The notes under the pieces are model-generated. The model did no database searches. It had not been told where the DNA came from and saw only the letters and a list, made by a program, of their open reading frames with translations. Shown piece after piece: positions 1 to 12,925 of a stretch of DNA of 64,000 nt (positions within the stretch are counted from its first letter, which is position 1; each line of letters opens with the position of its first letter). The translations under genes were made by a program, and so were the position numbers. The stretch is from positions 1 to 64,000 of IMG/VR virus record IMGVR_UViG_3300046777_001715, one strand, 5' to 3'. This stretch comes from a virus.

Positions 1-97
1 TACTACCTCATATCTCCCAGTTAATCTATCATAATATCTTGCTGCTTGACAGGTACAACTAAATACACCTGGTACATCAGAGCATTCCCATTTATGT

Positions 98-262
98 TCA
101 TGCATGATCAAAATACCCTTCTGCCCACAGGCCATCTAGGAATTCTCCAGCTTTAACTAAATAGTTATGAATTGCAGGATGTTCATCTGCATTAATTAAG
201 AGGTCGGCAGAGTTAATGCCATAAGACATATCTGCTAAATCCCTTGATGTATAACCTAACAT
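98..262 (-). CDS. small hypothetical protein (54 aa, MLGYTSRDLAD...)
   Basis: Read by hand; ATG overlaps the stop of the 262..492 ORF (TAATG coupling). Confidence 0.6.
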   Translation of the reverse strand: MLGYTSRDLADMSYGINSADLLINADEHPAIHNYLVKAGEFLDGLWAEGYFDHA

Positions 263-492
263 TATTTCTCCTCATCCCACTCTATGTAATATTGGTCTTC
301 AGGTTTCAAATCATAAAACTGATTAAATCTACCTTTTAGATAATTGCTTTCACACATTTCAGCAAATCTATAATCTGCATATAGTTGGCCTTCATCTAAA
401 TTAGAATTAACCCATTCCTCTACTAGTTGTTCACCAATATAAGAATATTCTGCGTCTATTACCATTTGATTTTCATTTTCTAAGAAACTCAT
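262..492 (-). CDS. acidic hypothetical protein
   Basis: ORF track; coupled to neighbours. Confidence 0.7.
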   Translation of the reverse strand: MSFLENENQMVIDAEYSYIGEQLVEEWVNSNLDEGQLYADYRFAEMCESNYLKGRFNQFYDLKPEDQYYIEWDEEK

Positions 493-1262
493 GCTTCCAC
501 CTTTTCTGTAGATTCCAATAATACACTATGGGTCTGACATTCTTTCATAGCCTCATCATCTTGCCAAGAACCCTCATTGCATTCTGAGCAGAATTGACCA
601 CAATCATTTTCACAATACTCAACACAATCAAAAGATTGGCAAGCATAGCAACGATTCTCATATTCTAGAATAGTTTTAACATCACCACGGACAATCTCAT
701 ATTCCCCACCCCAGCCTGTTTCCTCTTCATACTCTAATGTGAGCAGGCAGTTAGGAACAAGATTACTTAGTTTAGTTAGAATAGTTACAGCAGGTGACCA
801 TGCAGTCTCATATTTATATACAAGCCAGTTATCATCACCTTCTGATTTATATTCAAGTAATTCTGTATTAGAATACTCTTCGCCGTCACGGACGGCTACA
901 TCCCATTTAGTTCCCCAGTTGGTATTATTCCATGAATACCAATCTTTAGATACTTTAGCAATTTCAATAGATTTAGCAAACCAATTAGGGTCATTTGTAT
1001 CTAGACCTGTGCGGTCAGGCTGGCAGGCATACTCCTCATCAGTAATGCCGTCATCCTTATATGAGTGGATATTAAAGAAAGCAAAGACAGGATTATTATA
1101 TTCAACCTGCTTAATTTTGGTGGGGAAGCCTGAAGAACTAATATCACCCATACCATATGTCTCTTGTGCTAATACAAATGGCTTATTCAATCTATCTTTA
1201 ATCATATCTACCTCAGACTTAGGTCCTTGGATAGTTAATGTGTTATAACACCAATTTGGCAT
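489..1262 (-). CDS. Api92/YubB ferredoxin-like (DUF1281-type) phage protein
   Basis: MPNWCYN start, W..NWGTKWD and ETAWSP motifs; AACGAAAGG RBS. Confidence 0.75.
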   Translation of the reverse strand: MPNWCYNTLTIQGPKSEVDMIKDRLNKPFVLAQETYGMGDISSSGFPTKIKQVEYNNPVFAFFNIHSYKDDGITDEEYACQPDRTGLDTNDPNWFAKSIEIAKVSKDWYSWNNTNWGTKWDVAVRDGEEYSNTELLEYKSEGDDNWLVYKYETAWSPAVTILTKLSNLVPNCLLTLEYEEETGWGGEYEIVRGDVKTILEYENRCYACQSFDCVEYCENDCGQFCSECNEGSWQDDEAMKECQTHSVLLESTEKVEA

Positions 1263-1289
1263 TTTATATCCTTTCGTTGATATGACCTA

Positions 1290-1312
1290 ATTATATATTA
1301 GAGCACTGACAA
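1290..1312 (-). promoter_or_regulatory. RecA-NDp/PafBC-type promoter
   Basis: TTGTCAGTG-CTCTAATA-TATAAT on minus strand. Confidence 0.8.
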
Positions 1313-1330
1313 ATGTCTATAGAATATCCG

Positions 1331-1346
1331 TGTGATTCACACCACA
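1331..1346. promoter_or_regulatory. CRP/GlxR-like box (1 mismatch)
   Basis: TGTGA-TTCACA-CCACA. Confidence 0.5.
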
Positions 1347-1433
1347 TGATCTCAAAGCTTGAGAATTCCTGTGAATTTACTTGACCGTCTTAAATACCTT
1401 ATGCTATCCTCAGTCTTTTGCGGGCTTCCTGGC

Positions 1434-1560
1434 AAAAAGTTGGGGCCCTAGCAGTCTCTCCTCTGCTGGGCCCCTGGCGTTTGGCTGCATCCACACTATG
1501 CATATTTAAAGACTTGGCCGAAAGGGTGACCTGATAGCCTTACCAAACTATTTATGTTGA
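1434..1560 (-). ncRNA. candidate structured small RNA
   Basis: TGn-TATAAT at 1567-1575, multi-stem fold, GC-rich terminator hairpin with U-tract, no credible ORF. Confidence 0.45.
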
Positions 1561-1579
1561 ATTTATATTATATCATATC

Positions 1580-1930
1580 CTAGTTAACTGGAATTGTTGA
1601 ACCAAGGTGATACGCAATAAACTCCTCAAAACTGTGACCGTCAATCATTTTGTTAACCATGTCGATTTCAACTGTGAAATCCCATGCTGCAAAATCAGAC
1701 GGCTTAGCAACGGCACCAATTCCAAATCCTGTTTCTTGGTCCCATTCGCTTCCAATTAATTTACTAATGATGTTACGTATAGCATATGATGTGTCTTGCC
1801 AACGTGGACGTGCATGCATTAAAGCATTAGCAATGTCTATTTGCCAATCTGTCTCGCCCCAATGACTGTACAGCCATACTGCAGGTTCTTCAGCGCCTTC
1901 GTTGAAGAGATAATTAATCCGTGCTCCCAT
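1580..1930 (-). CDS. hypothetical protein (YSHWG motif, actinophage-type)
   Basis: ORF track. Confidence 0.75.
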   Translation of the reverse strand: MGARINYLFNEGAEEPAVWLYSHWGETDWQIDIANALMHARPRWQDTSYAIRNIISKLIGSEWDQETGFGIGAVAKPSDFAAWDFTVEIDMVNKMIDGHSFEEFIAYHLGSTIPVN

Positions 1931-2114
1931 TTGTTACTTCCGCCTTTTCTGAGTTGATGATGTGTGCTAATTCTACAATCTCGTAGGACCACTTGTCAAG
2001 AGCATCTTTAAACTCATTGTAGTGGTGCCCACAAAAGAATAGGTCCCCTGCTAATCCCTTAGCTTGGTATAAAGCTTGTGCTGTTTCGCATTTGTCGCAG
2101 CCTTGCCATGTCAT
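1914..2114 (-). CDS. small zinc-binding protein (CxxC...FCGHH)
   Basis: Cys/His pattern; start reassigned to MTWQG, coupled to upstream stop. Confidence 0.65.
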   Translation of the reverse strand: MTWQGCDKCETAQALYQAKGLAGDLFFCGHHYNEFKDALDKWSYEIVELAHIINSEKAEVTNGSTD

Positions 2115-2257
2115 AGAGTTCCGCCTTCTATCATTTCCGAAAGACGATCTAAGATCCATGAGTCAATGTCAGCGATATCAATCTCTGATAACTTCTCCAT
2201 GATTTCTTCACGAGCAAACTTGTACCCGTCATCAAAACCGTCTTTATAGTCCGACAT
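2111..2257 (-). CDS. small acidic protein (48 aa, MSDYKDGFDDGY...)
   Basis: Read by hand; GGAGA RBS; fills the gap. Confidence 0.65.
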   Translation of the reverse strand: MSDYKDGFDDGYKFAREEIMEKLSEIDIADIDSWILDRLSEMIEGGTL

Positions 2258-2258
2258 T

Positions 2259-2471
2259 TTATCTCCCTGTGTATCCTGTTGCCTCGTACTCGCTTACATA
2301 TGATTCTGATAGATTATATTTATCACGAATGCGGCTTACTTTCTCAATACTACCAGTTCCAATATTGAATGTCAATGGTGTCATTGCCTGCGGGTCTAGC
2401 CCTGTGATTTGTGCATCCCAATAGGCCCTCTCCATGGAGAGCCTATCGGGAGCGGTGAGTTCAAAGTACAT
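2259..2471 (-). CDS. hypothetical protein
   Basis: ORF track. Confidence 0.7.
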   Translation of the reverse strand: MYFELTAPDRLSMERAYWDAQITGLDPQAMTPLTFNIGTGSIEKVSRIRDKYNLSESYVSEYEATGYTGR

Positions 2472-3142
2472 TATGCTTCTCTCACATGACAGATTTCAAT
2501 GTCGCCAATTTCAATACGACCTGACTGTGAATCAACATACAGATTATCTGTAACTTCATCTTCAAGGTCATTACCCCAATCAGAAAGCAAATCAATTTCC
2601 ATTGTTCCGCTAACTTCGATTGTGCAAGTAAATTCAACCTGACGTGTTAGTTCAATATCAAGCGCTTCAGCAATTGCACGTAGAGTTTCTTGGTCCTCTG
2701 ATTCTGAATATGCTTCAGTGATAATATCTTTAACTAAACTAATCTTGTTAGTTAGAACGCCGTTAGTCTTCTGAGCCTGACGAGCATTGTGTAGGTCCCA
2801 TTCAAGGCTGGAAACCTTGGCGGTTGTAAATTCAGGGTCGGAGTAACCATGAATCACCTTATATGTAACTAGTAGATTAGGATTGTATTCCACTGCAGGT
2901 GAATGCAATGCATCCGAACCAATTGTTGTTTCTTCCATTTGTTCCTCTTTCGTTGTGGTTGTAGGTTGAATTGTAGCATGCTCCACTGACACCAATGTAG
3001 TATCTCTACCACATGGGCATGTGAGCTTTGTCACACCAGATGGGAATCCAAATCCATCTGATGATGTTAGTTCAATTAAACAATCACATTCATCTGGGTC
3101 ACAGACAAACGTGTACTTACTTGACATTAATTCATTTGACAT
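2471..3142 (-). CDS. hypothetical protein with N-terminal Cys cluster; probable second in-frame start at 2938
   Basis: Leaderless ATG 7 nt after TATAAT; internal promoter and RBS before MEETT. Confidence 0.7.
   Translation of the reverse strand: MSNELMSSKYTFVCDPDECDCLIELTSSDGFGFPSGVTKLTCPCGRDTTLVSVEHATIQPTTTTKEEQMEETTIGSDALHSPAVEYNPNLLVTYKVIHGYSDPEFTTAKVSSLEWDLHNARQAQKTNGVLTNKISLVKDIITEAYSESEDQETLRAIAEALDIELTRQVEFTCTIEVSGTMEIDLLSDWGNDLEDEVTDNLYVDSQSGRIEIGDIEICHVREA
2970..2992 (-). promoter_or_regulatory. RecA-NDp/PafBC-type promoter (intragenic)
   Basis: GTGTCAGTG-GAGCATGC-TACAAT. Confidence 0.75.
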
Positions 3143-3149
3143 GCCGAGA

Positions 3150-3172
3150 ATTATACACCACCCCACTGACAT
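3150..3172 (-). promoter_or_regulatory. RecA-NDp/PafBC-type promoter (leaderless)
   Basis: ATGTCAGTG-GGGTGGTG-TATAAT-7nt-ATG. Confidence 0.8.
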
Positions 3173-3271
3173 TTACAAGGAAATCCTGTGAAATTTTTAC
3201 GTGTCCCGTATGAGCTTGGTCACATCCTCAATATATTGCGGGCGTCTCATTATGTGAAACAAATTGTCTTG

Positions 3272-3344
3272 CGATTCGTACGGGATTTGAACCCGTGATC
3301 TCTACCGTGACAGGGTAGCGCTTTAACCACTAAGCTAACGAACC
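3272..3344 (-). tRNA. tRNA-Asp (GTC)
   Basis: Cloverleaf: GGTTCGT/ACGAATC acceptor, D-arm AGCTTAGTGGTTAAAGC, anticodon arm CTACC-CTGTCAC-GGTAG, T-loop GTTCAAATC; CCA not encoded. Confidence 0.93.
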
Positions 3345-3351
3345 AAATAGA

Positions 3352-3377
3352 AACGGGGGAGATTTCTCTCCCCCGTT
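3352..3377 (-). terminator. intrinsic terminator hairpin after DUF932 gene
   Basis: AACGGGGGAGA-loop-TCTCCCCCGTT inverted repeat. Confidence 0.7.
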
Positions 3378-3388
3378 AAATCATTTAG

Positions 3389-4393
3389 TTAAAATGATTT
3401 TACTAACTTGAGAATTTTATTTTTCTCAGCAGTTAGAACAGGGTCAAATCCTGATGCACCAGCCATTAGCGATTCAGAATTGCCACGACCAGAGCGGTAG
3501 TAATCAAGGCGTTCAGTGATTGCATTAAATGCACCCCACTTTGTTCCCTTGATTGTAGAATTCGTTGGTGAATTGTGGTAAAGGTCATCAAGCAAAACAA
3601 CCTTGTTTTCCCACTTCTTCATTGCACCCTTCAAATCCTTATCAGGCTTTGGATAGATTGTCTGAATCAACTTTGAAAATTCAGCATCGGTGATTGCTTG
3701 ATTAAACAAGCCCTGAGCCTCTTTTTCAAATTCATCAAAGTATCCAAGAGCAAGACCAAGAGTCTCACGAGCAACTTGAATGCGACCTTCAACAGATTGT
3801 GTGTGGCGAATCTTGAAAGATTGCTTAGCACTCTTCATTGCAAGGTTTAGAGTATTTTGGCAAACAACACGAACAGGTGTAACCGCTGCCTGAACAGCAA
3901 CAGAACCATCGTGTGATGTCCAAACAATGAGATATAGTTTTGTCTCATCATTTGCGCCTTGTGGGTCAAGAACCATTGTGCGAGGAATATCTACAGTTCC
4001 AAACACAACTTTGCCCTTCTTAAGAGAACCAGCAGATTCCCAACGGCAATCAGCATTGGCATCGTGAATTGCATCAGCAAATGCAAATAATTCTTCATTC
4101 TGCACAGGCTTGTAACGCTTGCCAACAGTAGCAAGAACATCAGTCCCGCCATTAAATGGATTAGTGCGTAACACTAAAGAAGATTGAGAAACATCGTTAA
4201 ATGATTCTGGAATATGCTCAGTGATTGGAGACAAGCGAACATTCCAGTTGGAAAGTTTAGCCTCATCGAGCATTGTTTGAGTAGTTACATCTTCATCTTT
4301 ATTGAAGATGCGATTGGCAAGATTATGCCAAGCAGGAGCACCACGAAGCGCAAACGCAACTTCGCCATTTTCTATTTCTAGATTGTGAGCCAT
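3389..4393 (-). CDS. DUF932 family phage/plasmid protein (TIGR03299-like)
   Basis: AWH.L start, Y.PVQN, SHDGS, RVVCQNTL, RHT, GTKWGAFNA motifs. Confidence 0.9.
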   Translation of the reverse strand: MAHNLEIENGEVAFALRGAPAWHNLANRIFNKDEDVTTQTMLDEAKLSNWNVRLSPITEHIPESFNDVSQSSLVLRTNPFNGGTDVLATVGKRYKPVQNEELFAFADAIHDANADCRWESAGSLKKGKVVFGTVDIPRTMVLDPQGANDETKLYLIVWTSHDGSVAVQAAVTPVRVVCQNTLNLAMKSAKQSFKIRHTQSVEGRIQVARETLGLALGYFDEFEKEAQGLFNQAITDAEFSKLIQTIYPKPDKDLKGAMKKWENKVVLLDDLYHNSPTNSTIKGTKWGAFNAITERLDYYRSGRGNSESLMAGASGFDPVLTAEKNKILKLVKSF

Positions 4394-4423
4394 TTTTTGT
4401 CCTTTCGTTTAGTTGATTTGGCA

Positions 4424-4446
4424 ATTATAACAGGTCGCACTGACAT
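4424..4446 (-). promoter_or_regulatory. RecA-NDp/PafBC-type promoter
   Basis: ATGTCAGTG-CGACCTGT-TATAAT. Confidence 0.8.
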
Positions 4447-4483
4447 TGTCTAGATTAGTTAGTCATTTGTCCGAATTGATCCG

Positions 4484-4499
4484 TGTGAGTAATCTCACA
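4484..4499. promoter_or_regulatory. CRP/GlxR box (perfect)
   Basis: TGTGA-GTAATC-TCACA. Confidence 0.7.
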
Positions 4500-4511
4500 A
4501 ATTTTCAGGGT

Positions 4512-4541
4512 TGTGGATAACTGGTCGTAACCTGTGGATAA
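4512..4541. promoter_or_regulatory. pair of DnaA boxes
   Basis: TGTGGATAA (=TTATCCACA) at 4512 and 4533. Confidence 0.7.
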
Positions 4542-4679
4542 CCCCCGCACATAGTTGCGGGCATCTCACATTGTGAGAACGCTATCTCGATCTCAGCTGG
4601 CGGCAGCCCCGAAGGGTTGAGCAGTTTGGCGACTTGCTCAGGTCGTTCGCAATTTATCGTTATGCGAGAACGATTTTAT

Positions 4680-5096
4680 TTAGAGATACTTAGCAATTTG
4701 CTTCATAGTAGAAGCATTTACTGTTTCCTCATCTGTCATCTTGAGAATTGTTAGGGCATTTGTGATGTCCTCTTTCATCTCACGATAAGTGTGCTGATGG
4801 ATAATCTCAAAATCCTTTTCAGGCTCTTTAGGAAAATCAGTTTCCTTTGTGATGATGTCAAAATCAACATTGAGAGTGTTGTTCCATTGACGATAGTTTG
4901 TGCGAAGGTTCTCAGACTTTGCGAAGTTTGCGATAGCCCACTTGCCAATTTCTTTCTGCCACTTTTCACGGGCTTTCTGATACTTGGCTTCGTTTGCTTC
5001 TTGTGAAGCATAGTCTTTTTCTAGTGTTGCTAGGCGAGTTTCTAGTGCCTTGATTACCTTTGGTGTTGCCACCTTTACTGTGATTGCTCTACTCAT
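4680..5096 (-). CDS. hypothetical coiled-coil protein
   Basis: ORF track; AACGAAAGG RBS. Confidence 0.8.
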   Translation of the reverse strand: MSRAITVKVATPKVIKALETRLATLEKDYASQEANEAKYQKAREKWQKEIGKWAIANFAKSENLRTNYRQWNNTLNVDFDIITKETDFPKEPEKDFEIIHQHTYREMKEDITNALTILKMTDEETVNASTMKQIAKYL

Positions 5097-5127
5097 TTCT
5101 TACCTTTCGTTTGTGTGTTTGGAGAGT

Positions 5128-5150
5128 ATTTTATCAGAGGGGTCTGACAA
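5128..5150 (-). promoter_or_regulatory. RecA-NDp/PafBC-type promoter
   Basis: TTGTCAGAC-CCCTCTGA-TAAAAT. Confidence 0.75.
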
Positions 5151-5223
5151 AAAGTGTGTGAGGGTTCTTACTTACGACATTGGGCGAGGACTCCCTCTAA
5201 ACTGCCCCTGTTTCGCTAGTTAA

Positions 5224-5400
5224 TTAAACTAGAGCCGAATTGCTAACTGTTGTCCAACGAGTTTCTTTCGTTGGCATTTCCAGTAGCACTCGCACCGAGC
5301 CAGATGCGTTAGGAATAATCTCCTTGATTACTCCAGTTTTCTTTGACTTTAAGGTTGTGAATAAATCGCCAACCTTGTAAGTGTATCCATTTACTGTCAT
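5224..5400 (-). CDS. small SH3/KOW-like beta protein
   Basis: Start reassigned to MTVNG after GAAAGGAAG RBS; YKVGDL...TGVIKEI pattern. Confidence 0.65.
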   Translation of the reverse strand: MTVNGYTYKVGDLFTTLKSKKTGVIKEIIPNASGSVRVLLEMPTKETRWTTVSNSALV

Positions 5401-5426
5401 TTTGCTTCCTTTCTTGTTAGGGTAGT

Positions 5427-5449
5427 ATTTTAGCATAGGGGTCTGACAT
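5427..5449 (-). promoter_or_regulatory. RecA-NDp/PafBC-type promoter
   Basis: ATGTCAGAC-CCCTATGC-TAAAAT. Confidence 0.75.
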
Positions 5450-5466
5450 TTATCAAGCCCCTAGAG

Positions 5467-5482
5467 TGTGAGTTATCTCACA
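5467..5482. promoter_or_regulatory. CRP/GlxR box (perfect)
   Basis: TGTGA-GTTATC-TCACA, overlapping the stop codon of the 5478..5750 gene. Confidence 0.7.
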
Positions 5483-5750
5483 ATACTTCGGGCAACCAAG
5501 CGTCCAAGTGGTGGGCGTCTATAATTGCAGATGCAGGGCAAGAGGTCTTACCTTTCCAAGTAATGTCATCAGGTAGAGGTATCTCACGATCAAAATCCTC
5601 CTCATAGTATGCGTCAATAGCGTCTATGCAAGGTTGCACCATAGCAAGGGGAACGGGAGGGTAATGATTAGAGCGGAGATGAATACCAATAGCCATTTCT
5701 AAATCTAATTCTAATTCCTCAGATAAATCTAATGCTGTATTGTAACCCAT
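5478..5750 (-). CDS. hypothetical protein (HL.SNHYPPVP...HHL)
   Basis: ORF track; GGAG RBS. Confidence 0.8.
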   Translation of the reverse strand: MGYNTALDLSEELELDLEMAIGIHLRSNHYPPVPLAMVQPCIDAIDAYYEEDFDREIPLPDDITWKGKTSCPASAIIDAHHLDAWLPEVL

Positions 5751-5753
5751 TTA

Positions 5754-5960
5754 TTACTCCCCCCAACTTACTTTGGCGTATGAATTGTTTGCGTTAATCT
5801 TATCTAATGCACCAATACTATCTAATGCACCTGTAAATACGCCACTAAGTAAATCATTTAATTCTTTTTCAGAATAATTTACTAGAGCGGTTAAGACATA
5901 ATCAGGCATTGTTTTTTCATCAAAATCAACGCTGACTTTTACATTGTGTGTGAGTTTCAT
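5754..5960 (-). CDS. hypothetical protein
   Basis: ORF track; AACGAAAGGG RBS. Confidence 0.75.
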   Translation of the reverse strand: MKLTHNVKVSVDFDEKTMPDYVLTALVNYSEKELNDLLSGVFTGALDSIGALDKINANNSYAKVSWGE

Positions 5961-5984
5961 TTTTTCCCTTTCGTTATGGTCGCT

Positions 5985-6007
5985 ATTTTACACTACCCCA
6001 CCGACAT
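5985..6007 (-). promoter_or_regulatory. RecA-NDp/PafBC-type promoter
   Basis: ATGTCGGTG-GGGTAGTG-TAAAAT. Confidence 0.8.
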
Positions 6008-6022
6008 TTACAATTTCTGCAT

Positions 6023-6116
6023 CGGCGTGTCGCAGCTTTTGTGATATTTCTCACAATTCCCGTGTTTATCCACAGCCCCACTTAAACCTGTGGATAACCC
6101 CGCAAAAGACTGCGGG
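6023..6116. promoter_or_regulatory. composite cassette: GACACGCC site, CRP box, two DnaA boxes, CCCGCA palindrome
   Basis: CGGCGTGTCG 6023; TGTGA-N6-TCACA 6040-6055; TTATCCACA 6066; TGTGGATAA 6089; CCCGCAAAAGACTGCGGG 6099-6116. Confidence 0.7.
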
Positions 6117-6118
6117 CC

Positions 6119-6217
6119 TCACCTCAGCTTTGTCAACATGTAAATGACTAATAAAATTGGTGTACATAAGAATGCAATAATACCAATTGCAAACACGGTA
6201 CCAAGGAATTCATACAT
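6119..6217 (-). CDS. small membrane peptide (32 aa)
   Basis: MYEFLGTVFAIGIIAFLCTPILLVIYMLTKLR; TAATG coupling. Confidence 0.55.
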   Translation of the reverse strand: MYEFLGTVFAIGIIAFLCTPILLVIYMLTKLR

Positions 6218-6936
6218 TATTTTTTACTCGCAGAAAATCGAATGTCTGACTTACCATAAACACATAGGCCACATGAAACACATGCGGACCCTGCATTGCT
6301 AATAAGTGGAATAGACTTATTATTTTCAGGACACTTAGCACCAGGCTTTCCAGTCAATTCTTTCATTGTGCTTTCAGTTGCGGCGAATGTCTTCCCTAAA
6401 TATGCAAGGCGGATACTAGAATTTAATTTAAGGTCATGAGCAATTTCTTTATTGTCGTCATCGGTAGAATAATAAAGAGATAGATTAGAGATATCCTTAA
6501 GAATAAGCGCTGCAGACTTTACACGAGTATAAACCCAGAATTGAACATCCGCATGATCATTAATTACATTCTTCCAGGCATACGTATAGAAATCATTAAA
6601 GAAATCTCCGTCCCAGTGGATACGGAATAACATCGGTGCGTCTTTCTTTACACAATCAGCCTTGAAATCAATAATCATTTCATTAAGCAATTGATACATG
6701 GTCTCCATGTCTGCATTGCGTAGGAGCTCCCAGTTATGAAGAAGATTAGTTTTTACTCCAGGGAAGAGTTTTTCAAGCTTTCCCGCATAGCAGACGCTTT
6801 CGCACACGCTAGTGGCACCAGGACAGGAGAAAGCCTTGCCTGCAGGTAATCCAAAAGTATTAGCAATAGCGGCTTGCTTTCCATTTTTTGTGACAAGGTT
6901 AGCCACCTTTCTATCATTAGAACGTTTTAATTTCAT
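6217..6936 (-). CDS. gp88-like Fe-S (radical-SAM-related) phage protein
   Basis: CPGATSVCESVCYA, RIHWDGDF, YTR and C-terminal CxxCxxC; leaderless start MKLKRS. Confidence 0.8.
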   Translation of the reverse strand: MKLKRSNDRKVANLVTKNGKQAAIANTFGLPAGKAFSCPGATSVCESVCYAGKLEKLFPGVKTNLLHNWELLRNADMETMYQLLNEMIIDFKADCVKKDAPMLFRIHWDGDFFNDFYTYAWKNVINDHADVQFWVYTRVKSAALILKDISNLSLYYSTDDDNKEIAHDLKLNSSIRLAYLGKTFAATESTMKELTGKPGAKCPENNKSIPLISNAGSACVSCGLCVYGKSDIRFSASKK

Positions 6937-6943
6937 GGGGGTA

Positions 6944-6966
6944 ATTATAGCGGTTAGGTCTGACAT
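6944..6966 (-). promoter_or_regulatory. RecA-NDp/PafBC-type promoter (leaderless)
   Basis: ATGTCAGAC-CTAACCGC-TATAAT-7nt-ATG. Confidence 0.8.
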
Positions 6967-6967
6967 A

Positions 6968-7168
6968 TTAGTAATCCTCATCCATTCCAAATCCAGCGGA
7001 AGCAAGAGCGTCATTATCAGCCCATCCAGTTAATTCATAGAATGAAACTTCATCAGCGTCATAGCAAGAAGCACACAAGAAGTCATCCTGATAATAACCA
7101 TATTCATATGCGTCCATTAGGATATAATCAGCGCAATTATCGCCAGTGCAAAATACTTTGTATTCCAT
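6968..7168 (-). CDS. small acidic Cys protein ending ALASAGFGMDEDY
   Basis: Start reassigned to MEYKV after GAAAGG RBS. Confidence 0.7.
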   Translation of the reverse strand: MEYKVFCTGDNCADYILMDAYEYGYYQDDFLCASCYDADEVSFYELTGWADNDALASAGFGMDEDY

Positions 7169-7197
7169 TAGTTTGCCTTTCATTTGGAGAGGTTGCA

Positions 7198-7220
7198 ATT
7201 GTAGCAGAATGGACCGACAA
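7198..7220 (-). promoter_or_regulatory. RecA-NDp/PafBC-type promoter
   Basis: TTGTCGGTC-CATTCTGC-TACAAT. Confidence 0.8.
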
Positions 7221-7246
7221 AATCTAATCGAAATGCTCAAAATTCC

Positions 7247-7299
7247 TGTGATTTATACCACACTCGTAACGACACGCCCGACCCCGCAAAAGCTGCGGG
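7247..7299. promoter_or_regulatory. cassette: CRP-like box, GACACGCC site, CCCGCA palindrome
   Basis: TGTGA-TTTATA-CCACA 7247; GACACGCCC 7271; CCCGCAAAAGCTGCGGG 7283-7299. Confidence 0.6.
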
Positions 7300-7313
7300 C
7301 TTTAGTTGAAATT

Positions 7314-7433
7314 TCAATCAGTTTTATTTTTATGTTTTATTTTTCGTGTGTATTTTTTTTTATTGCGAACAGGAGTTGCGGCATTTGATCTCCGCAATTC
7401 CTGAATGCGTTTTATTTTTTCTTTTAAATTCAT
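7314..7433 (-). CDS. highly basic 39 aa peptide
   Basis: MNLKEKIKRIQELRRSNAATPVRNKKKYTRKIKHKNKTD; GAAAGG upstream. Confidence 0.6.
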   Translation of the reverse strand: MNLKEKIKRIQELRRSNAATPVRNKKKYTRKIKHKNKTD

Positions 7434-7434
7434 T

Positions 7435-7623
7435 TTATACCTTTCCAAAAATTGTGTGATAGTTGCTCGCTTCGTGAAATCTTGTTACATCAAATCGAGG
7501 ATTATCTTTTGCAAACATCTCCGCAAAATCTGTTACGACTTTAGAAAATAAAGCAGGGTGAGTTTTTGTGCTCATATAGTTTAGAATTTCTGCGGTTGCC
7601 ACATAGTCTTTTCTTGTCATCAT
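7435..7623 (-). CDS. hypothetical protein (MTRKDY...DNPRFD..RF)
   Basis: ORF track. Confidence 0.75.
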   Translation of the reverse strand: MMTRKDYVATAEILNYMSTKTHPALFSKVVTDFAEMFAKDNPRFDVTRFHEASNYHTIFGKV

Positions 7624-7823
7624 TTTACTGCCACCATTCCACTACGATAGAAAACTTTTGTATAGCATTTGCCTGAAGGCGTGTAGAGATTAACTGTTGA
7701 ATATTCGTTAGCCATTCCCCAATCGGTGAATAAGAAAAAGTTTTCCCACGCACCATATTCATTTTCATATTCAGCAGACCAATGAGGGGCGTTGCTATCA
7801 TAAGCGCAAGTTAGTTTATACAT
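7620..7823 (-). CDS. hypothetical protein
   Basis: ORF track; coupled. Confidence 0.7.
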   Translation of the reverse strand: MYKLTCAYDSNAPHWSAEYENEYGAWENFFLFTDWGMANEYSTVNLYTPSGKCYTKVFYRSGMVAVK

Positions 7824-7987
7824 TATTCATTTACCCAATCTACTGTTAATTCATCTTCAACATTTGCGATACAATCGCAAGGCTCTACATCATAAGCCAA
7901 TTCATTACCAAAGAAAATAAATCCTGCGCCACCGCATTCATCACATTCAGCAGAAACAATTTCGATTAGTTCTTTTACTTTAGCCAT
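7823..7987 (-). CDS. small Zn-ribbon protein (CDECGGAG...PCDC, 54 aa)
   Basis: Read by hand; AACGAAAGGG RBS. Confidence 0.65.
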   Translation of the reverse strand: MAKVKELIEIVSAECDECGGAGFIFFGNELAYDVEPCDCIANVEDELTVDWVNE

Positions 7988-8102
7988 TTAGGTTTTCCCT
8001 TTCGTTATTTGTTGAAATTGTAGCAGATAGCACTGACAAGGCTTCCGCTTTTGTTGCTTCACGTTGTGCGATAACGTGAGCCTTGAATTCTTCTAAATTC
8101 AT
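7980..8102 (-). CDS. small hypothetical protein (40 aa, MNLEEFKAHV...)
   Basis: TAATG coupling; contains an embedded promoter. Confidence 0.55.
   Translation of the reverse strand: MNLEEFKAHVIAQREATKAEALSVLSATISTNNERENLNG
8017..8039 (-). promoter_or_regulatory. RecA-NDp/PafBC-type promoter
   Basis: TTGTCAGTG-CTATCTGC-TACAAT. Confidence 0.8.
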
Positions 8103-8302
8103 TATTCACCAACCTTTACTGCTAAATAGCGATAAGAATCTTTGAAAGATTTGTGAGGTCTAACCTGCACAAGATAGGTATCGCAATCTGCATACCATAC
8201 CGCAGAAGTTTTTTCTGCGTCAATGATTTCACCTGTAAGGGTGCGGGAATGATAAGTCTTTCCGATAAGAAGACTTTCGACTGTATAGACATTTGCTGAC
8301 AT
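8102..8302 (-). CDS. hypothetical protein
   Basis: ORF track; GAAAGG RBS. Confidence 0.75.
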   Translation of the reverse strand: MSANVYTVESLLIGKTYHSRTLTGEIIDAEKTSAVWYADCDTYLVQVRPHKSFKDSYRYLAVKVGE

Positions 8303-8336
8303 TAGTTGTCACCTTTCTTTAGTAATTTATAGGGAG

Positions 8337-8359
8337 ATTGTATCAGTTACTACTGACAA
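8337..8359 (-). promoter_or_regulatory. RecA-NDp/PafBC-type promoter
   Basis: TTGTCAGTA-GTAACTGA-TACAAT; GACACGCC at 8370. Confidence 0.75.
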
Positions 8360-8502
8360 TTTTGGCAAGGACACGCCTTTAGAGAGAAAAGATATTTTAG
8401 CAATACCTTTTTTTCTGATACTGAAATTTCAGGGTGAAATTGTTTTACCCCACCATTTAGATATTCGTGAGAGATTTTATTTAGAGTTTTTTCAGTGAGC
8501 AT
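8350..8502 (-). CDS. small protein with C-terminal CxCxxC (50 aa)
   Basis: MLTEKTLNK...KACPCQNCQ; GAAAGGGG RBS. Confidence 0.6.
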   Translation of the reverse strand: MLTEKTLNKISHEYLNGGVKQFHPEISVSEKKVLLKYLFSLKACPCQNCQ

Positions 8503-8531
8503 TTTTGCCCCTTTCTTTTTGTTATGCTGAA

Positions 8532-8554
8532 ATTATAGCCTAAGCCACTGACAT
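8532..8554 (-). promoter_or_regulatory. RecA-NDp/PafBC-type promoter
   Basis: ATGTCAGTG-GCTTAGGC-TATAAT. Confidence 0.8.
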
Positions 8555-8602
8555 TTTTCTACTTACTAGCCAGTAATTTCATATTTTGAGACGCTCAAGC
8601 CG

Positions 8603-8711
8603 TGTGATAAATATCACAAGAATTTCAGGGTTTTCCACAGGCTGTCTTAAGGGCTGTGGATAACCCCGCAGTCTTTTGCGGGCCAGCTTGATTTTGTCAA
8701 GCCGACACGCC
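8603..8711. promoter_or_regulatory. composite cassette: CRP box, two DnaA boxes, CCCGCA palindrome, GACACGCC
   Basis: TGTGA-TAAATA-TCACA 8603; TTTTCCACA 8631; TGTGGATAA 8655; CCCGCAGTCTTTTGCGGG 8665-8682; GACACGCC 8704. Confidence 0.7.
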
Positions 8712-8715
8712 GTTA

Positions 8716-8814
8716 TTATTTAATTTTTTCTAAAAGTTTTTCTAGTTCTTTTAGTTGCTCTAGATTAAGGTGATCTAGTTGAATAGCTTTTTCAAATCCG
8801 AATTCGTCGCTCAT
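8716..8814 (-). CDS. small protein (32 aa, MSDEFGFEKAIQLDHL...)
   Basis: TAATG-coupled chain. Confidence 0.55.
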   Translation of the reverse strand: MSDEFGFEKAIQLDHLNLEQLKELEKLLEKIK

Positions 8815-8924
8815 TAATTTAACCCGTTTTCTTTTAGGTCTTTTATTACGGCGATTACTAGCGGGATAGTAACTCCCGCTAGTAGTAATTGGACGGCGGT
8901 AGTTAGTAGACGATTAGTAGTCAT
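8814..8924 (-). CDS. small membrane peptide (36 aa)
   Basis: MTTNRLLTTAVQLLLAGVTIPLVIAVIKDLKENGLN; coupled. Confidence 0.55.
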   Translation of the reverse strand: MTTNRLLTTAVQLLLAGVTIPLVIAVIKDLKENGLN

Positions 8925-9064
8925 TACTTATTCCTCTTTCTCTTGATTACTGTATAGAGTGTAGCACCTACTACCGACAAGATAATAAACGCCCACGATT
9001 GGGATACATAGAGGAAATCCCCTAGGTCAATCATTAGCCCATAGTCATTTAGTTCAATAGTCAT
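8924..9064 (-). CDS. small membrane peptide (46 aa)
   Basis: MTIELNDYG...FIILSVVGATLYTVIKRKRNK; coupled. Confidence 0.55.
   Translation of the reverse strand: MTIELNDYGLMIDLGDFLYVSQSWAFIILSVVGATLYTVIKRKRNK
8958..8980 (-). promoter_or_regulatory. RecA-NDp/PafBC-type promoter (intragenic)
   Basis: TTGTCGGTA-GTAGGTGC-TACACT. Confidence 0.7.
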
Positions 9065-9216
9065 TAGTCATTCCAATCTAGTGTTAGTTCATCTTCATCA
9101 AAAGCATCAAAAGAAATGTCTCCCTTTTGGATAGCGTCTTCCCACGCTAGGTTTTCTTCTATGCCTACATAGGCATCTGCTACATCTGCTTGAATAGTAT
9201 CCCATTTAGACATCAT
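9064..9216 (-). CDS. small acidic protein (50 aa)
   Basis: MMSKWDTIQADVAD...; coupled. Confidence 0.55.
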   Translation of the reverse strand: MMSKWDTIQADVADAYVGIEENLAWEDAIQKGDISFDAFDEDELTLDWND

Positions 9217-9389
9217 TACTTGTTATCTCCTGTCTTGATAGATTGAACATTAGCGGAAAACTTTACTTTCTTACCTAGATTGCTAGCATTTAGCGAATCT
9301 ATTAGATGGTCAATAGCCTTCATTTCGTGGGCTACATTGTCAATGCTTAGTAGGCGAGAGCCTTGCCAAATTGAATAAGTTATAGTCAT
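9216..9389 (-). CDS. small protein (57 aa, MTITYSIWQGS...)
   Basis: GAAAGG RBS; coupled. Confidence 0.6.
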   Translation of the reverse strand: MTITYSIWQGSRLLSIDNVAHEMKAIDHLIDSLNASNLGKKVKFSANVQSIKTGDNK

Positions 9390-9393
9390 TTAT

Positions 9394-9510
9394 TTACTTA
9401 CCTTTCTTATCTTGGAGAGATTTAGCATAGTCTACATCAGAGACGGCGGTAGCACCAAACTCCTCATAGATTTCTAGATAGATTTCATCATAGTATTCGT
9501 TATAGTCCAT
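9394..9510 (-). CDS. small acidic Tyr-rich protein (38 aa)
   Basis: MDYNEYYDEIYLEIYEEFG...; GAAAGG RBS. Confidence 0.55.
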   Translation of the reverse strand: MDYNEYYDEIYLEIYEEFGATAVSDVDYAKSLQDKKGK

Positions 9511-9558
9511 TATTAGACCTTCTTTCTTTTAGTTAGTTAGTTATTTAGTTATGAGAGA

Positions 9559-9581
9559 AGACTAGCAGAGTAGTCCGACAA
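9559..9581 (-). promoter_or_regulatory. RecA-NDp/PafBC-type promoter
   Basis: TTGTCGGAC-TACTCTGC-TAGTCT; GACACGC at 9591. Confidence 0.7.
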
Positions 9582-9622
9582 TTACAAGGCGACACGCTAC
9601 CCTGTGGGTGTGATTTATACCA

Positions 9623-9850
9623 CTATTCCCAAGAGCGGGTAGTAGCATAGACTACACGCTTACTAGGCTTATAGTTTTCTAATTCTTTTAGAGAACACTC
9701 TAGGATAGTGCCTCTTTCTGCTAGTAGGTCTAGCATTTCATTAGCAGAGTGTTCATCTTTTACGAGAACACCTAGACAAGTTCCAAACTCTTTAGAGAGA
9801 GGATACTCAGGGTTAGTATTGTATTCTATTTTATAACTTAGTGAGAACAT
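9623..9850 (-). CDS. hypothetical protein, first gene of the leftward block
   Basis: ORF track; GAAAGGAG RBS. Confidence 0.75.
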   Translation of the reverse strand: MFSLSYKIEYNTNPEYPLSKEFGTCLGVLVKDEHSANEMLDLLAERGTILECSLKELENYKPSKRVVYATTRSWE

Positions 9851-9886
9851 TTTGTTCTCCTTTCTTTTGTTTATCTTATGTATAGA

Positions 9887-9909
9887 ATACTAACATAGAC
9901 CACTGACAT
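9887..9909 (-). promoter_or_regulatory. RecA-NDp/PafBC-type promoter
   Basis: ATGTCAGTG-GTCTATGT-TAGTAT. Confidence 0.75.
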
Positions 9910-9924
9910 TTTGACCTGTTTTTC

Positions 9925-10006
9925 GGGCGTGTCGCAAAACTATTTTTGTGAAGTGCATCACACAGATAATGGGCGCACTATACAGTTATCCACAGCCTGT
10001 GCAAAA
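9925..10006. promoter_or_regulatory. composite cassette: GACACGCC, CRP box, two DnaA boxes
   Basis: GGGCGTGTCG 9925; TGTGA-AGTGCA-TCACA 9947; TTATCCACA 9986; TGTGCAAAA 9998. Confidence 0.7.
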
Positions 10007-10061
10007 CTCGTATCATACAAATTAAAAATATATTAACATTTCTAGAAATCTGAAATATTAG

Positions 10062-10090
10062 TTGACCAGAATACTTATAAATGCTATTAT
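10062..10090 (+). promoter_or_regulatory. housekeeping sigma promoter, leaderless
   Basis: TTGACC-17nt-TATTAT-7nt-ATG. Confidence 0.65.
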
Positions 10091-10097
10091 AAGGGTT

Positions 10098-10847
10098 ATG
10101 AGTAAAGAACCTCTTGTTGTATATTGGGCTCCTATGGAATCGGCGGAAGCCAGTGATTATGGAGCATGGAATATGCTATATCCAGATCCTAAGCTACTAA
10201 TGCATGAGCTTATGGAAAAAAGAAATAAAGAAGATAAATATCCAAGAGGATTCTTGCAATGTCCTGCAGCTACAGGCAGATTTAAGCACACATATGTTTT
10301 TAGAAACGGAATTAGGTCAGAGATAGAGTTTGATATGTCTGATCCTGAAAATCCTAGAATTGAATCTCTTGGCAAAACAGGAGTAAACTTTAGAATAGAA
10401 AGACCATCTGCATTTACAGAGGGTGCATCTTTTGCGTTCATGCAAAAATATTTATTTTTTGCGGAAGAACCAACAATGGGAGTATTCAGTACGCCTATGA
10501 TGCACAAACCTGGATATACCCAATATGGGACCCTAATCCCAGGAGCATTTGATATATCCTCTTGGTTTAGACCTATGAATGTAGAAATTCAAACGTGGGA
10601 AACACAAGGAAAGCTCATTATTGAGGAAGATGAACCTTTGTTTTATTTTGAGGTACTCACTGATAGAGAAATTATTATGAAGAGATTCAAATGTAATGAG
10701 TCTTTGATCAGATATGCAGAAAGCTGTGCAGATTCTCCTAAGTGGTATGGAAATAATCTACCTCTAGTTAAGCGTTATACTAAATTTAAGCAATCACAGA
10801 TGGATAAAATTATTTTAAAGGAAATTAAAAATAATCTAGTCGACTAG
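10098..10847 (+). CDS. hypothetical protein (beta-barrel, CPA...WFRP family seen in aquatic phages)
   Basis: ORF; start reassigned to MSKEP. Confidence 0.75.
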   Translation: MSKEPLVVYWAPMESAEASDYGAWNMLYPDPKLLMHELMEKRNKEDKYPRGFLQCPAATGRFKHTYVFRNGIRSEIEFDMSDPENPRIESLGKTGVNFRIERPSAFTEGASFAFMQKYLFFAEEPTMGVFSTPMMHKPGYTQYGTLIPGAFDISSWFRPMNVEIQTWETQGKLIIEEDEPLFYFEVLTDREIIMKRFKCNESLIRYAESCADSPKWYGNNLPLVKRYTKFKQSQMDKIILKEIKNNLVD

Positions 10848-10853
10848 GATATT

Positions 10854-10961
10854 ATGGCATCTCATAGAGTAGTAATTTGTGAAATATGTGGGCGGGAAAT
10901 AGAAGTTAGATCTGACTTTGCCTATATGACTTTAAATAATCATATGAAGGAGCACAAATGA
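10854..10961 (+). CDS. C2H2 zinc-finger-like peptide (35 aa)
   Basis: CEICGREIEVRSDFAYMTLNNHMKEH; ATGA overlap with next gene. Confidence 0.6.
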   Translation: MASHRVVICEICGREIEVRSDFAYMTLNNHMKEHK

Positions 10962-11248
10962 ATAAAATTTGGCGGGATGAAATAGCTATGACTATTTCTG
11001 CTGCAAAGCTCAAGAATGAAAGCATCTACCTTGATGATCATATCATTGCAGAAGAGATTCTAGGATACCTTGTAAAAAGGCTAGAAGGGGTCTTAGAGAC
11101 ATGTTTAAATGTAGAGGCAGGTAGATGTATGACCTGGTGGAAACATGATGAATGTCTAAGCTTGCAGAAAATTCTTTTTGATATTACAGAAGATCCTAAA
11201 TATATGACCCAAGAGATGCTAAATGAATATAATTGGAGCAAATTATGA
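10958..11248 (+). CDS. hypothetical protein
   Basis: ORF track; AAGGAG RBS. Confidence 0.7.
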   Translation: MNKIWRDEIAMTISAAKLKNESIYLDDHIIAEEILGYLVKRLEGVLETCLNVEAGRCMTWWKHDECLSLQKILFDITEDPKYMTQEMLNEYNWSKL

Positions 11249-11423
11249 CAGGCCAAAGATTTATAACTATCTTGGGAATGATTTTAATTACTTATTATTT
11301 ATTAGTTGCTTTAACTTGGTAATTAGTCGACTAAAATATTTTTCTATACGTGTAGGCTTAGCATATGTCATCATATGTCTGTTCTCCGAAAAATATCTTC
11401 TAGGCATAATATAATTCTATCAC

Positions 11424-11504
11424 AAAAAGACGAAAATCCCTTCGGAGGCGGATCCTAGGGGATTTTCTAATGTTAGGGAGAATGGTGGTTCTCAACCAAA
11501 CACT
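11424..11504 (-). ncRNA. candidate small RNA (two hairpins)
   Basis: TTGACT-17nt-TATTAT promoter at 11511-11539; hairpin 1, then GAAAATCCC/GGGATTTTC stem and U-tract; no ORF. Confidence 0.55.
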
Positions 11505-11539
11505 ACTCTTATAATAACATAAGTGTAATTTGTAGTCAA

Positions 11540-12232
11540 CTACAAATACTGTTTTCTCTCTCTATATTCTTTCTTATACTTACCTGATCTATTACTTTCA
11601 AAATTCATGCTCTCTTCCGCCTGCACTTTTAAGTATTCAGCATCTGCTATTTTAATTGAGCTTTTATAGTCTTCCCGCTTAAATGGAATGATCTGAGCTA
11701 TGAGAGTTCCTTTAGGAATAACCCCGTTAAATTTCTTAATCAAGAATGGCAGTAGTACTGGCTGAAAGTAGTTATCTGTTTCTACCACCCCTGTTAATGT
11801 ATAGAATGGGGACTCTGGCCTATTAAATGGTTGAGTAAATACACAGCTATATCCCTCTGGGGTCTTTACTGTAAATGGGTTAAACCACTTGTACGCCCAC
11901 TTAGCGTATCCTTCTGGAATTGGCATATCTCCAAGCTGGGCAATTGGGTGCTCTAGAATATCTTCTCTAGACAATCCCTCTCCAGAAAATGTTACCTTAT
12001 CTCCGACATGCTTTACATGGATATCTATCTTAGTGGCTAGGTAGTATCCGCCAATAAATGAATCTAGAACTGGCGTACATCTTTTTACAGACATATCCTC
12101 AAAGTTTTTATCTTCGTAAAGTTTTACAATTGGTGGCAAATTTTTAAACCATTTAGGAAGTGCTTCTACGCCGCCGAGCACTTCAAGATATGTGCAATCT
12201 AATTGTGTGTGTATAAAATCAATGTCTACCAT
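11540..12232 (-). CDS. DUF6065-like / dUTPase-fold hypothetical protein
   Basis: KRC.P..D, GVVETD, IPKGT.IAQIIPFKRE motifs. Confidence 0.65.
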   Translation of the reverse strand: MVDIDFIHTQLDCTYLEVLGGVEALPKWFKNLPPIVKLYEDKNFEDMSVKRCTPVLDSFIGGYYLATKIDIHVKHVGDKVTFSGEGLSREDILEHPIAQLGDMPIPEGYAKWAYKWFNPFTVKTPEGYSCVFTQPFNRPESPFYTLTGVVETDNYFQPVLLPFLIKKFNGVIPKGTLIAQIIPFKREDYKSSIKIADAEYLKVQAEESMNFESNRSGKYKKEYRERKQYL

Positions 12233-12321
12233 TAAATAGGGCTATCTAGTATTTCATCGACAGCATCATCAATTGTTCTACCGTTATGTTCTGTAGAGCA
12301 GTCTCCACAGTTCTTACACAT
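12232..12321 (-). CDS. small Cys peptide (29 aa, MCKNCGDCSTEH...)
   Basis: Fills the gap; TAATG coupling. Confidence 0.45.
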   Translation of the reverse strand: MCKNCGDCSTEHNGRTIDDAVDEILDSPI

Positions 12322-12559
12322 CTTTACCCCATTTACCAAGTGGGCATTCTGCATCTGATAAAGAAGCCTTAAGCGGCATTATGCAAAGGCACTCTTTACA
12401 CTGACTGGTTAGCTTAAATAGCTCTGGGCAAGCATTACAGATAGACATTCTGTGATTATATACGTCGCCCTCTACATGCTCTTTCTTAGGGTTAACAATA
12501 TCCCAAGGCTTAACCTGATTGGGATCTTTAAAATTTTCATAGGCTGATTTAATACCCAT
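12314..12559 (-). CDS. DUF6171-like Cys-rich protein
   Basis: CxxC...CxxCxC...CPLGKW. Confidence 0.7.
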   Translation of the reverse strand: MGIKSAYENFKDPNQVKPWDIVNPKKEHVEGDVYNHRMSICNACPELFKLTSQCKECLCIMPLKASLSDAECPLGKWGKDV

Positions 12560-12729
12560 TAGAATTCTCCTATCGGACAGCTAAATGTTTCGTCAACAAA
12601 ATACTCAGCACTATGGGCATCTGCCATAGTACACTTAAGTTCTATTTTACTAAATTCAAGGCACTTATTGCAAGTGCCTGACCTAAAATCAGCTAGAAGC
12701 TTCTTCTGTATTTTCGGGTGTAGAGTCAT
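12559..12729 (-). CDS. small Cys-rich protein
   Basis: CxxC...C...CPIGEF; start MTLHPK. Confidence 0.55.
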   Translation of the reverse strand: MTLHPKIQKKLLADFRSGTCNKCLEFSKIELKCTMADAHSAEYFVDETFSCPIGEF

Positions 12730-12925
12730 TATTCTCTTTAGGTAGAAATGCTGGCATAGGACCAAGAATATGACCCTGCTCATGCAAATTAACGATATTC
12801 TGAATTAGCTCTGGCTTTTCAGTAACATGAGATGCAACAACAGACATAAGGTCATAAATTCTGGCCAACATAATGTACTGTGCCATCTGTAAGTTATCTT
12901 CTAGATTGACGTTCTCTTCGCTCAT
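12689..12925 (-). CDS. hypothetical protein
   Basis: ORF track. Confidence 0.7.
   Translation of the reverse strand: MSEENVNLEDNLQMAQYIMLARIYDLMSVVASHVTEKPELIQNIVNLHEQGHILGPMPAFLPKENNDSTPENTEEASS

Follow-up and report, generated by a model that had tools for sequence, protein, structure and literature searches.

The sequence analysed here (the window) is the first 64 kb of the 106,256-bp genome held in IMG/VR record IMGVR_UViG_3300046777_001715, which comes from an uncultured and abundant phage of lake origin and is 99% complete, with a G+C content of 38.5%. Its left end is occupied by a block of small genes that is punctuated, on the coding strand, by a 22-nt sequence of the form TGTC(A/G)G-N10-TAnnnT. 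We consider here this putative class of promoters, its likeness to the promoters that the activator PafBC controls in Actinobacteria, and the factor that might read it. The block, its recognizable genes and all matches to the pattern in the genome are given below, where those called PafBC-type are promoters predicted from their sequence.

1..9909, minus strand: block of about 35 small genes, mostly orphan, truncated by the start of the contig
489-1262, minus strand: DUF1281_C/Api92-like gene
3271..3344, minus strand: tRNA-Asp(GTC), within the small-gene block
3389-4393, minus strand: DUF932 gene
6217-6936, minus strand: GP88-family gene, with a Pfam GP88 match
9887..9908, minus strand: PafBC-type promoter, TGTCAGTG...TAGTAT, the first in the block, ahead of the gene starting at 9850
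9559..9580, minus strand: PafBC-type promoter, TGTCGGAC...TAGTCT, ahead of a gene of about 40 amino acids (aa) starting near 9516
8958..8979, minus strand: PafBC-type promoter within open reading frame (ORF) 8924-9064, ahead of the gene starting near 8924
8532..8553, minus strand: PafBC-type promoter, TGTCAGTG...TATAAT, ahead of the gene starting at 8502
8337..8358, minus strand: PafBC-type promoter upstream of the gene that starts at 8302; it overlaps ORF 8350-8502 at the 3' end
8280..8301, minus strand: doubtful match overlapping the start codon of ORF 8102-8302, without TGn and with a poor -10 (TACAGT)
8017..8038, minus strand: PafBC-type promoter within ORF 7980-8102, ahead of the gene starting at 7987
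7198..7219, minus strand: PafBC-type promoter, TGTCGGTC...TACAAT, ahead of the gene starting at 7168
6944..6965, minus strand: PafBC-type promoter, with a leaderless ATG at 6936, 7 nt past the -10, that starts the GP88-family gene
5985..6006, minus strand: PafBC-type promoter, TGTCGGTG...TAAAAT, ahead of the gene starting at 5960
5427..5448, minus strand: PafBC-type promoter, TGTCAGACC...TAAAAT, ahead of the gene starting at 5400
5128..5149, minus strand: PafBC-type promoter, TGTCAGACC...TAAAAT, ahead of gene 4680-5096
4424..4445, minus strand: PafBC-type promoter, TGTCAGTG...TATAAT, ahead of the DUF932 gene
3150..3171, minus strand: PafBC-type promoter, with a leaderless ATG at 3142, 7 nt past the -10, ahead of gene 2471-3142
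2970..2991, minus strand: PafBC-type promoter within gene 2471-3142, followed by an in-frame ATG (2938) with a ribosome-binding site of its own
1290..1311, minus strand: PafBC-type promoter, TGTCAGTG...TATAAT, ahead of gene 489-1262
518..539, minus strand: PafBC-type promoter, TGTCAGACC...TATTAT, with a good -10, within the 3' end of gene 489-1262 and ahead of gene 262-492
48201: match in the window outside the block, antisense to a plus-strand gene
80509-80530, plus strand: match beyond the window, TGTCAGCTGGGAATGATATAAT, between the primase gene and the gene preceding dnaE

When the window was scanned for TGTCRG-N10-TAnnnT, with 100 dinucleotide-preserving shuffles as the null, 18 matches were found against 0.96 expected (sd 0.99, maximum 5). 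Seventeen of them lie on the minus strand within 518-9908, a density of about 1.7 sites per kb of the block, while the remaining 96 kb of the genome hold only the matches at 48201, probably a product of chance, and 80509. The spacing is equally strict, since all 17 block matches were obtained at N10 and none at N9 or N11; conversely, the gene strand of the block has 19 TGTCRG hexamers, 17 of them followed by a -10 element at N10, and the opposite strand carries a single hexamer. No one-mismatch relative that keeps the GTC occurs in the block, and the promoter class is thus sharply bounded. Chance or a repeat artefact was rejected as the origin of the sites, because their spacers differ and the shuffle statistics are extreme. 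The initial annotation had listed 15 minus-strand sites with invariant spacing, all of which proved to be exact matches with a spacing of 10 nt; its total has to be extended by the site at 518, which is likely a real promoter, and by the doubtful match at 8280, which is probably a coding coincidence. It had also placed four sites within coding sequence, where we count about six (518, 2970, 8017 and 8958, and in part 8337 and 6944). Its statement that each site lies upstream of a GAAAGG ribosome-binding site or a leaderless ATG describes most sites and the two leaderless ones well.

The sites have the anatomy of promoters. Their -10 consensus is TA(T/C)AAT-like and is in most cases preceded by T-G at -15/-14 (the TGn extension), whereas a conserved -35 element is absent, the information content at the -35 positions being at most 0.32 bit and only a few sites showing chance -35 matches of 4-5/6. 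The three bases before the hexamer (-3..-1) are A/T, and about half of the sites have the GTG of the older RecA-NDp consensus. At most sites a GAAAGG/AAAGGA Shine-Dalgarno-like motif and a start codon follow, 24-36 nt past the -10. At the two leaderless sites of the window, 3150 and 6944, the -10 is instead followed almost directly by the ATG, and at the latter this ATG (6936) is residue 27 of a longer ORF and the exact start of the Pfam GP88 match. In the frame 2471-3172, the leaderless ATG at 3142 and the internal ATG at 2938 with its own promoter could yield two nested isoforms. The possibility that the hexamer is the -35 element of an alternative sigma factor was rejected, as a 10-nt spacing is too short for recognition by region 4 and the -10 is of the housekeeping type; SOS (LexA) control was likewise rejected, as LexA boxes were not found in the block.

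The same features recur, in larger numbers, among relatives. With the DUF932 protein as query, 245 related IMG/VR contigs were retrieved, from which 80 loci totalling 1.3 Mb were kept. These contain 1125 sites on the gene strand against four on the opposite strand, and the 1125 occurrences at N10 compare with 10 and seven at N9 and N11. TGTC(A/G)G is invariant at all 17 block sites and among 704 unique family sites. Orthologous-site alignments across the 80 loci show that TGTCRG is 94-100% conserved and T1, A2 and T6 of the -10 are 96-99.5% conserved, with values of 58-84% in the spacer and about 61-84% in the upstream flank. An ATG lies 6-7 nt past the -10 in 79 of 790 unique family sites (at most seven at each neighbouring offset), which suggests from the sequences that transcription starts there, as for leaderless mRNAs. 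Five complete or near-complete relatives (105-120 kb) each have a single block of 10-12 kb in which 14-18 sites lie on the same strand, with strays at control level; a near-identical counterpart of the 80509 site is present in one of the five (G444, at 14037). Judged by these sequence features, 16-17 of the block sites are real promoters and form a single, sharply defined class confined to the minus-strand block.

Outside the block the phage appears to use promoters of another kind. About 22 extended -10 promoters of the form TGnTAnAAT, without an upstream element, were found on the plus strand (14327-56250 in the window and 65502-100333 in the rest of the genome), several of them (38731, 52270, 74925 and 93344) directly before a ribosome-binding site and an ATG. 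The upstream TGTCRG element is thus the mark of one regulatory class among the promoters of the phage.

Several other motifs are concentrated in the block. Nine of the 13 TGTGA-N6-TCACA palindromes of CRP/GlxR type (at most one mismatch) in the whole genome fall within the 10-kb block, where they lie upstream of PafBC-type promoters (window 1331-9962; for example at 1331, 3209, 4484, 5467, 6040, 7247, 8603 and 9947). Six of the eight perfect DnaA-box-like 9-mers of the genome (TTATCCACA / TGTGGATAA) are also found there (4512, 4533, 6066, 6089, 8655 and 9986), often paired and directly past CCCGCA...TGCGGG terminator hairpins, as are all five copies of the octamer GACACGCC/GGCGTGTC, which occupy intergenic cassettes (6024, 7271, 8370, 8704 and 9926). 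Between the promoter at 1290 and gene 1580-1930 lies a gene-free stretch of 270 nt with G+C-rich hairpins (1312-1580), possibly a terminator region or a structured RNA.

A megablast search of positions 1-10 kb against cultured phages gave no match. By their ribonucleotide reductase (RNR) and DUF932 proteins, the closest cultured phages are the BE-cluster phages of Streptomyces, among them Bmoc (NC_055842; Stanwilliamsviridae), whose RNR is 67% identical and whose homologous DUF932 gene shows 51% identity. Bmoc has the same arrangement of about 20 small genes on the minus strand, the DUF932 homologue among them, in which each gene has a promoter of its own, together with hairpin terminators (GGCCGCCCCGGCC in Bmoc). 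Its genes 1-21 are repeated as genes 257-277 (1-14000 and 119000-132885) and thus form an 11-kb direct terminal repeat, and block 1..9909 of the lake phage corresponds to the block within this repeat of the Streptomyces BE phages. In Bmoc the block therefore lies in a direct terminal repeat, whereas the lake phage is read from a contig whose start cuts the block. A position in the terminal repeat is typical of takeover genes in T5 and SPO1. From this synteny, the small-gene block of the lake phage probably comprises early, host-takeover genes. The two phages differ in their promoters: those of Bmoc are canonical (TTGnnn-17/18-TGnTAGACT), and TGTCRG-N10-TAnnnT occurs in Bmoc at control level (3 vs 3). 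Because the same block has canonical -35 promoters in Bmoc, the lake family would appear to have kept the architecture of the BE block while swapping the -35 for a -26 element.

The pattern is that of a known class of cellular promoters. The in vivo PafBC motif is tGTCgg(N10)tA(N3)T, in which the 5' part is the '-26 element' at -28..-23, a -35 element is missing and the 3' part is a sigma-A -10 (PMC8635444). PafBC-dependent promoters (RecA-NDp, recA P1-type) of Mycobacterium and other Actinobacteria are read by 'sigma adaptation' (PMC8635444; PMC11804915; PMC6789036), with R46 and R50 of PafB contacting the two guanines of the GTC triplet (PMC8635444), and PafBC becomes active when its WYL domains bind single-stranded DNA (ssDNA) (PMC11804915). 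The phage sites share this 22-nt layout, with TGTCRG at -28..-23, a spacer of exactly 10 nt and TAnnnT, as well as the invariant GTC, the frequent GTG past the hexamer, the missing -35 and the housekeeping-type -10. The likeness of the motif to the RecA-NDp/PafBC promoter, noted in the initial annotation, is therefore borne out, its sequence and geometry being equal to those published. There are nevertheless differences. The phage class is viral and dense (compared with a handful of sites per host genome), and it drives small orphan genes rather than repair genes and lacks SOS boxes. In addition, T0 and G5 are invariant in the phage, A is favoured at position 4, the upstream flank is A/T-rich, and the -10 is near-consensus with a TGn extension, which makes strict dependence on an activator doubtful. 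No published link between PafBC/RecA-NDp promoters and phage promoters was found.

Whether PafBC could act on the phage depends on the host. The phage carries whiB, and its host should thus be an actinobacterium. The whiB gene (99370-99543, plus strand, beyond the window) encodes a C-terminal N-x-HKT motif that is common to many metagenomic relatives; in 14 control genomes the phage WhiB family matched Corynebacterium only, and no relative was found in the genome contigs with the phage WhiB as query. An alignment of 19 WhiB sequences was not used because its conserved stretches looked phage-specific. Other routes to the host were also abandoned, as the phage RecA is too divergent to lead to a host recA and the list of RNR homologues is saturated by relatives of at least 90% identity that carry no host information. 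The only isolated phages of Nanopelagicales are unrelated 39-kb phages (PMC10202952).

Because of whiB, the low G+C content, the lake origin and a tRNA-Asp with its best matches in small single-contig actinobacterial genomes, we infer that the candidate hosts are streamlined, acI-type actinobacteria. The search was entered with what we take to be the sequence of the HGC69a 23S probe, which led to Actinobacteria only, and continued in an even sample of 401 genomes of the class. The phage tRNA-Asp matched at 79-81% over about 63 nt, almost always in single-contig genomes of 1.3-1.5 Mb; the single best match (83%, in the unpublished genome G026) was not used, and the class tallies for tRNA-Asp and PafC include unpublished genomes (G009, G017, G026, G032, G034, G038, G045 and G375), no claim resting on any one of them. 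The AcI-852 probe, in the sequence that we assume for it, matched exactly in three small genomes, with two mismatches in Demequina and not at all in a Mycobacterium. Given their size and this exact match, the small genomes are probably acI, and the candidate host family was taken as the streamlined actinobacterial genomes of 1.0-2.2 Mb that match the acI probe.

These genomes are equipped with PafBC. WYL genes are present in all 41 candidate host genomes, nearly all of which have a tandem pair of about 310-350 aa and many of which have a third WYL protein of about 720-750 aa, and HTH_PafC, the helix-turn-helix (HTH) domain of PafC, was found in 57 of 61 genomes sampled evenly across the class. 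In one candidate host, G341, the pair consists of WYL+WCX followed by HTH_PafC+WYL, and then by tatC and a DEAD-box helicase gene, which is also the mycobacterial pafB-pafC-tat-helY order. The recognition helix of PafB, RMFERDK, is the same in Mycobacterium and in six of the nine acI PafB loci scanned, where R46, R50 and K52 are kept. A sequence (T/C)GTC(A/G)GTG-N8-TAnnnT lies upstream of recA in at least 22 of 26 candidate host genomes. Across whole host genomes the strict motif is no more frequent than its reversed-pattern control (10 per 1.2-1.4 Mb) and is thus not a general feature of host promoters, while the GTCRGTG form occurs 6-7 times vs 1-3 in the control. Other host sites lie ahead of carD, a LysM gene and a DUF6504 gene, and one of them uses the TGTCAGACC variant, the second sub-type seen in the phage. 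In G341 the promoters of the LysM and DUF6504 genes are directly followed by an SOS box (TCGAAC-N4-GTTCGA), a juxtaposition that suggests dual PafBC/LexA control in a streamlined lake actinobacterium.

On the basis of these comparisons, we hold it somewhat more probable than its negation that host PafBC reads the block promoters by sigma adaptation and thereby links the block to ssDNA. The promoters would be read by the housekeeping RNA polymerase holoenzyme of the host, as their sigma-A type, mostly TGn-extended -10 implies, with TGTC(A/G)G at -28..-23 standing in place of the -35. A PafB-PafC heterodimer of the host, activated by ssDNA on its WYL domains, would insert between sigma region 4 and the DNA, PafB reading the GTC triplet, so that strong expression of the small-gene block would be tied to the ssDNA that appears during infection. 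Because the phage -10 is near-consensus and extended, PafBC is probably not strictly required but boosts or times the promoters, and the upstream element may be an additional input and not the only switch. Much of what the initial annotation had proposed, namely the promoter class, its geometry, an actinophage and pafBC in the hosts (here the candidate hosts that we infer), can be retained, and DNA entry or replication stress may, as it suggested, be the trigger. Its suggestion of a phage-encoded PafBC mimic gains no support, as neither a WYL domain nor a PafC-type HTH (HTH_PafC), nor sigma region 2, was found in the phage genome, and a Pfam scan of 24 block ORFs revealed no DNA-binding domain. 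The sole candidate for a small DNA-binding protein seen on the phage is a 62-aa ORF in the recombination module, which has a weak sigma-70 region 4-like HTH match (89120-89209, plus strand; E = 0.0019) that falls below the cut-off.

A number of points weigh against a role for host PafBC. The phage -10 is near-consensus with TGn, unlike the -10 of the host recA promoters, which is TACCTT and lacks TGn in all but one genome, and the phage uses TGnTAnAAT elsewhere without any upstream element, so that basal PafBC-independent activity is likely. T0 is invariant in the phage whereas position 0 is mostly C at host recA, and positions -3..-1 are A/T-rich in the phage. The promoters could thus fire without PafBC, or another factor with a similar site could read them. 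Neither DNA-repair genes nor SOS boxes were found in the small-gene block. Furthermore, PafBC needs ssDNA, which would have to be at hand from the onset of infection; the early timing of the block is itself deduced by analogy with other phages, and the acI-type host from sequence.

In the strongest alternative, the promoters are self-sufficient extended -10 promoters and TGTCAG is the site of an unrecognized phage protein, either a MotA-like activator or a later repressor, its PafBC likeness being coincidental or convergent. Most sites do combine TGn with a near-consensus -10, the TGnTAnAAT module suffices elsewhere on the phage without an upstream element, the host motif varies more than TGTCAG does, Pfam leaves most of the block proteins as unclassified orphans, and there is the weak HTH-like match at 89120-89209. 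A precedent exists in the middle promoters of T4, in which an element about 30 bp upstream likewise replaces the -35, next to an ordinary housekeeping -10, and is read by a protein that bridges sigma region 4 and the DNA; this 'sigma appropriation' by AsiA/MotA, with a MotA box at -30, has been compared with PafBC (PMC8635444). However, the T4 factors are phage-encoded and act after the early genes, whereas the element of the lake phage equals the site of a host activator, and its promoter class would use a host sensor rather than a phage protein. In the Pfam scan of the 24 block ORFs, which included no search aimed at MotA or AsiA, a phage-encoded factor of T4 type was not seen, and the failure to find a DNA-binding domain there, or a sigma, WYL or PafC-type HTH domain in the phage, argues in the same direction. 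Moreover, this promoter type stands at the head of all transcription units in the block, the first one (9887) among them, and an activator encoded in the block could not set off its own synthesis. Finally, coincidence would have to account for a great deal in a phage of PafBC-bearing hosts, namely the exact 10-nt spacing, the GTC, the preference for GTG and the missing -35. We therefore regard a phage-encoded reader as unlikely, though it is the alternative that survives best.

It is also conceivable, but improbable in our view, that the -26 element is read by another host factor, be it a different HTH/WYL regulator or the holoenzyme together with RbpA, CarD or WhiB proteins. The large third WYL protein of many candidate hosts could be such a regulator, and T0 is invariant in the phage, which it is not in host recA promoters. 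On the other hand, the motif stays at control level in the host genomes and is not a general feature of their promoters, the host sites belong to damage-regulon genes, some with SOS boxes, which is the signature of PafBC, and the residues with which PafB reads its site are conserved.

A still less probable view is that the sites are mainly a decoy, many high-affinity copies on replicating phage DNA soaking up PafBC and blunting the damage or defence response, with transcription of the block as a secondary effect. Titration would be in keeping with the density of the phage sites, 17 of which fall within 10 kb where an entire host genome has only a handful of true ones, and with their closer match to the consensus than that of the host sites. 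Nonetheless, the sites are all at promoter distance from a gene start or leaderless ATG and on the coding strand only, and a site serving purely as a decoy would require no -10 at fixed spacing and no strand bias; titration is in any case compatible with activation by PafBC rather than opposed to it.

The stoperators of L5, a cluster A mycobacteriophage, are asymmetric, present in many copies and co-oriented with transcription, and they contain TGTCAAG. The phage sites are also short, asymmetric, multi-copy and co-oriented with transcription, some within genes, but that they are such repressor sites rather than promoter elements is very improbable and is excluded in our reading by the fixed -10, since stoperators have no fixed relation to a -10, whereas here 17 of 19 hexamers are followed by one after exactly 10 nt, the start codons keep fixed distances and leaderless ATGs are enriched at 6-7 nt; nor were repressor or integrase-type lysogeny functions noticed in the part of the ORFs that was scanned.

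To return to PafBC, the broader proposition is that a large, globally abundant family of lake actinophages replaced the ancestral -35 of its early promoters with the PafBC -26 element, such that the ssDNA alarm of the host fires the viral takeover by sigma adaptation; on the sequence comparisons made here, we see the arguments for and against it as evenly balanced. PafBC and sigma adaptation have so far been known as part of a cellular DNA-damage response only, and WYL regulators are otherwise discussed as controllers of anti-phage defence. If the proposition is true, a phage that writes a PafBC promoter ahead of nearly every gene of its takeover block would make the reverse use of the host ssDNA sensor, a defence-linked signal would be turned against the cell, and it would be the first known case of a virus that exploits a WYL-domain sensor in such a way. 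The family would also offer about 700 natural promoter variants with which to define what PafBC reads. Its hosts probably rank first in abundance among freshwater bacteria; their gene regulation has hardly been studied, and acI cultures can now be grown.

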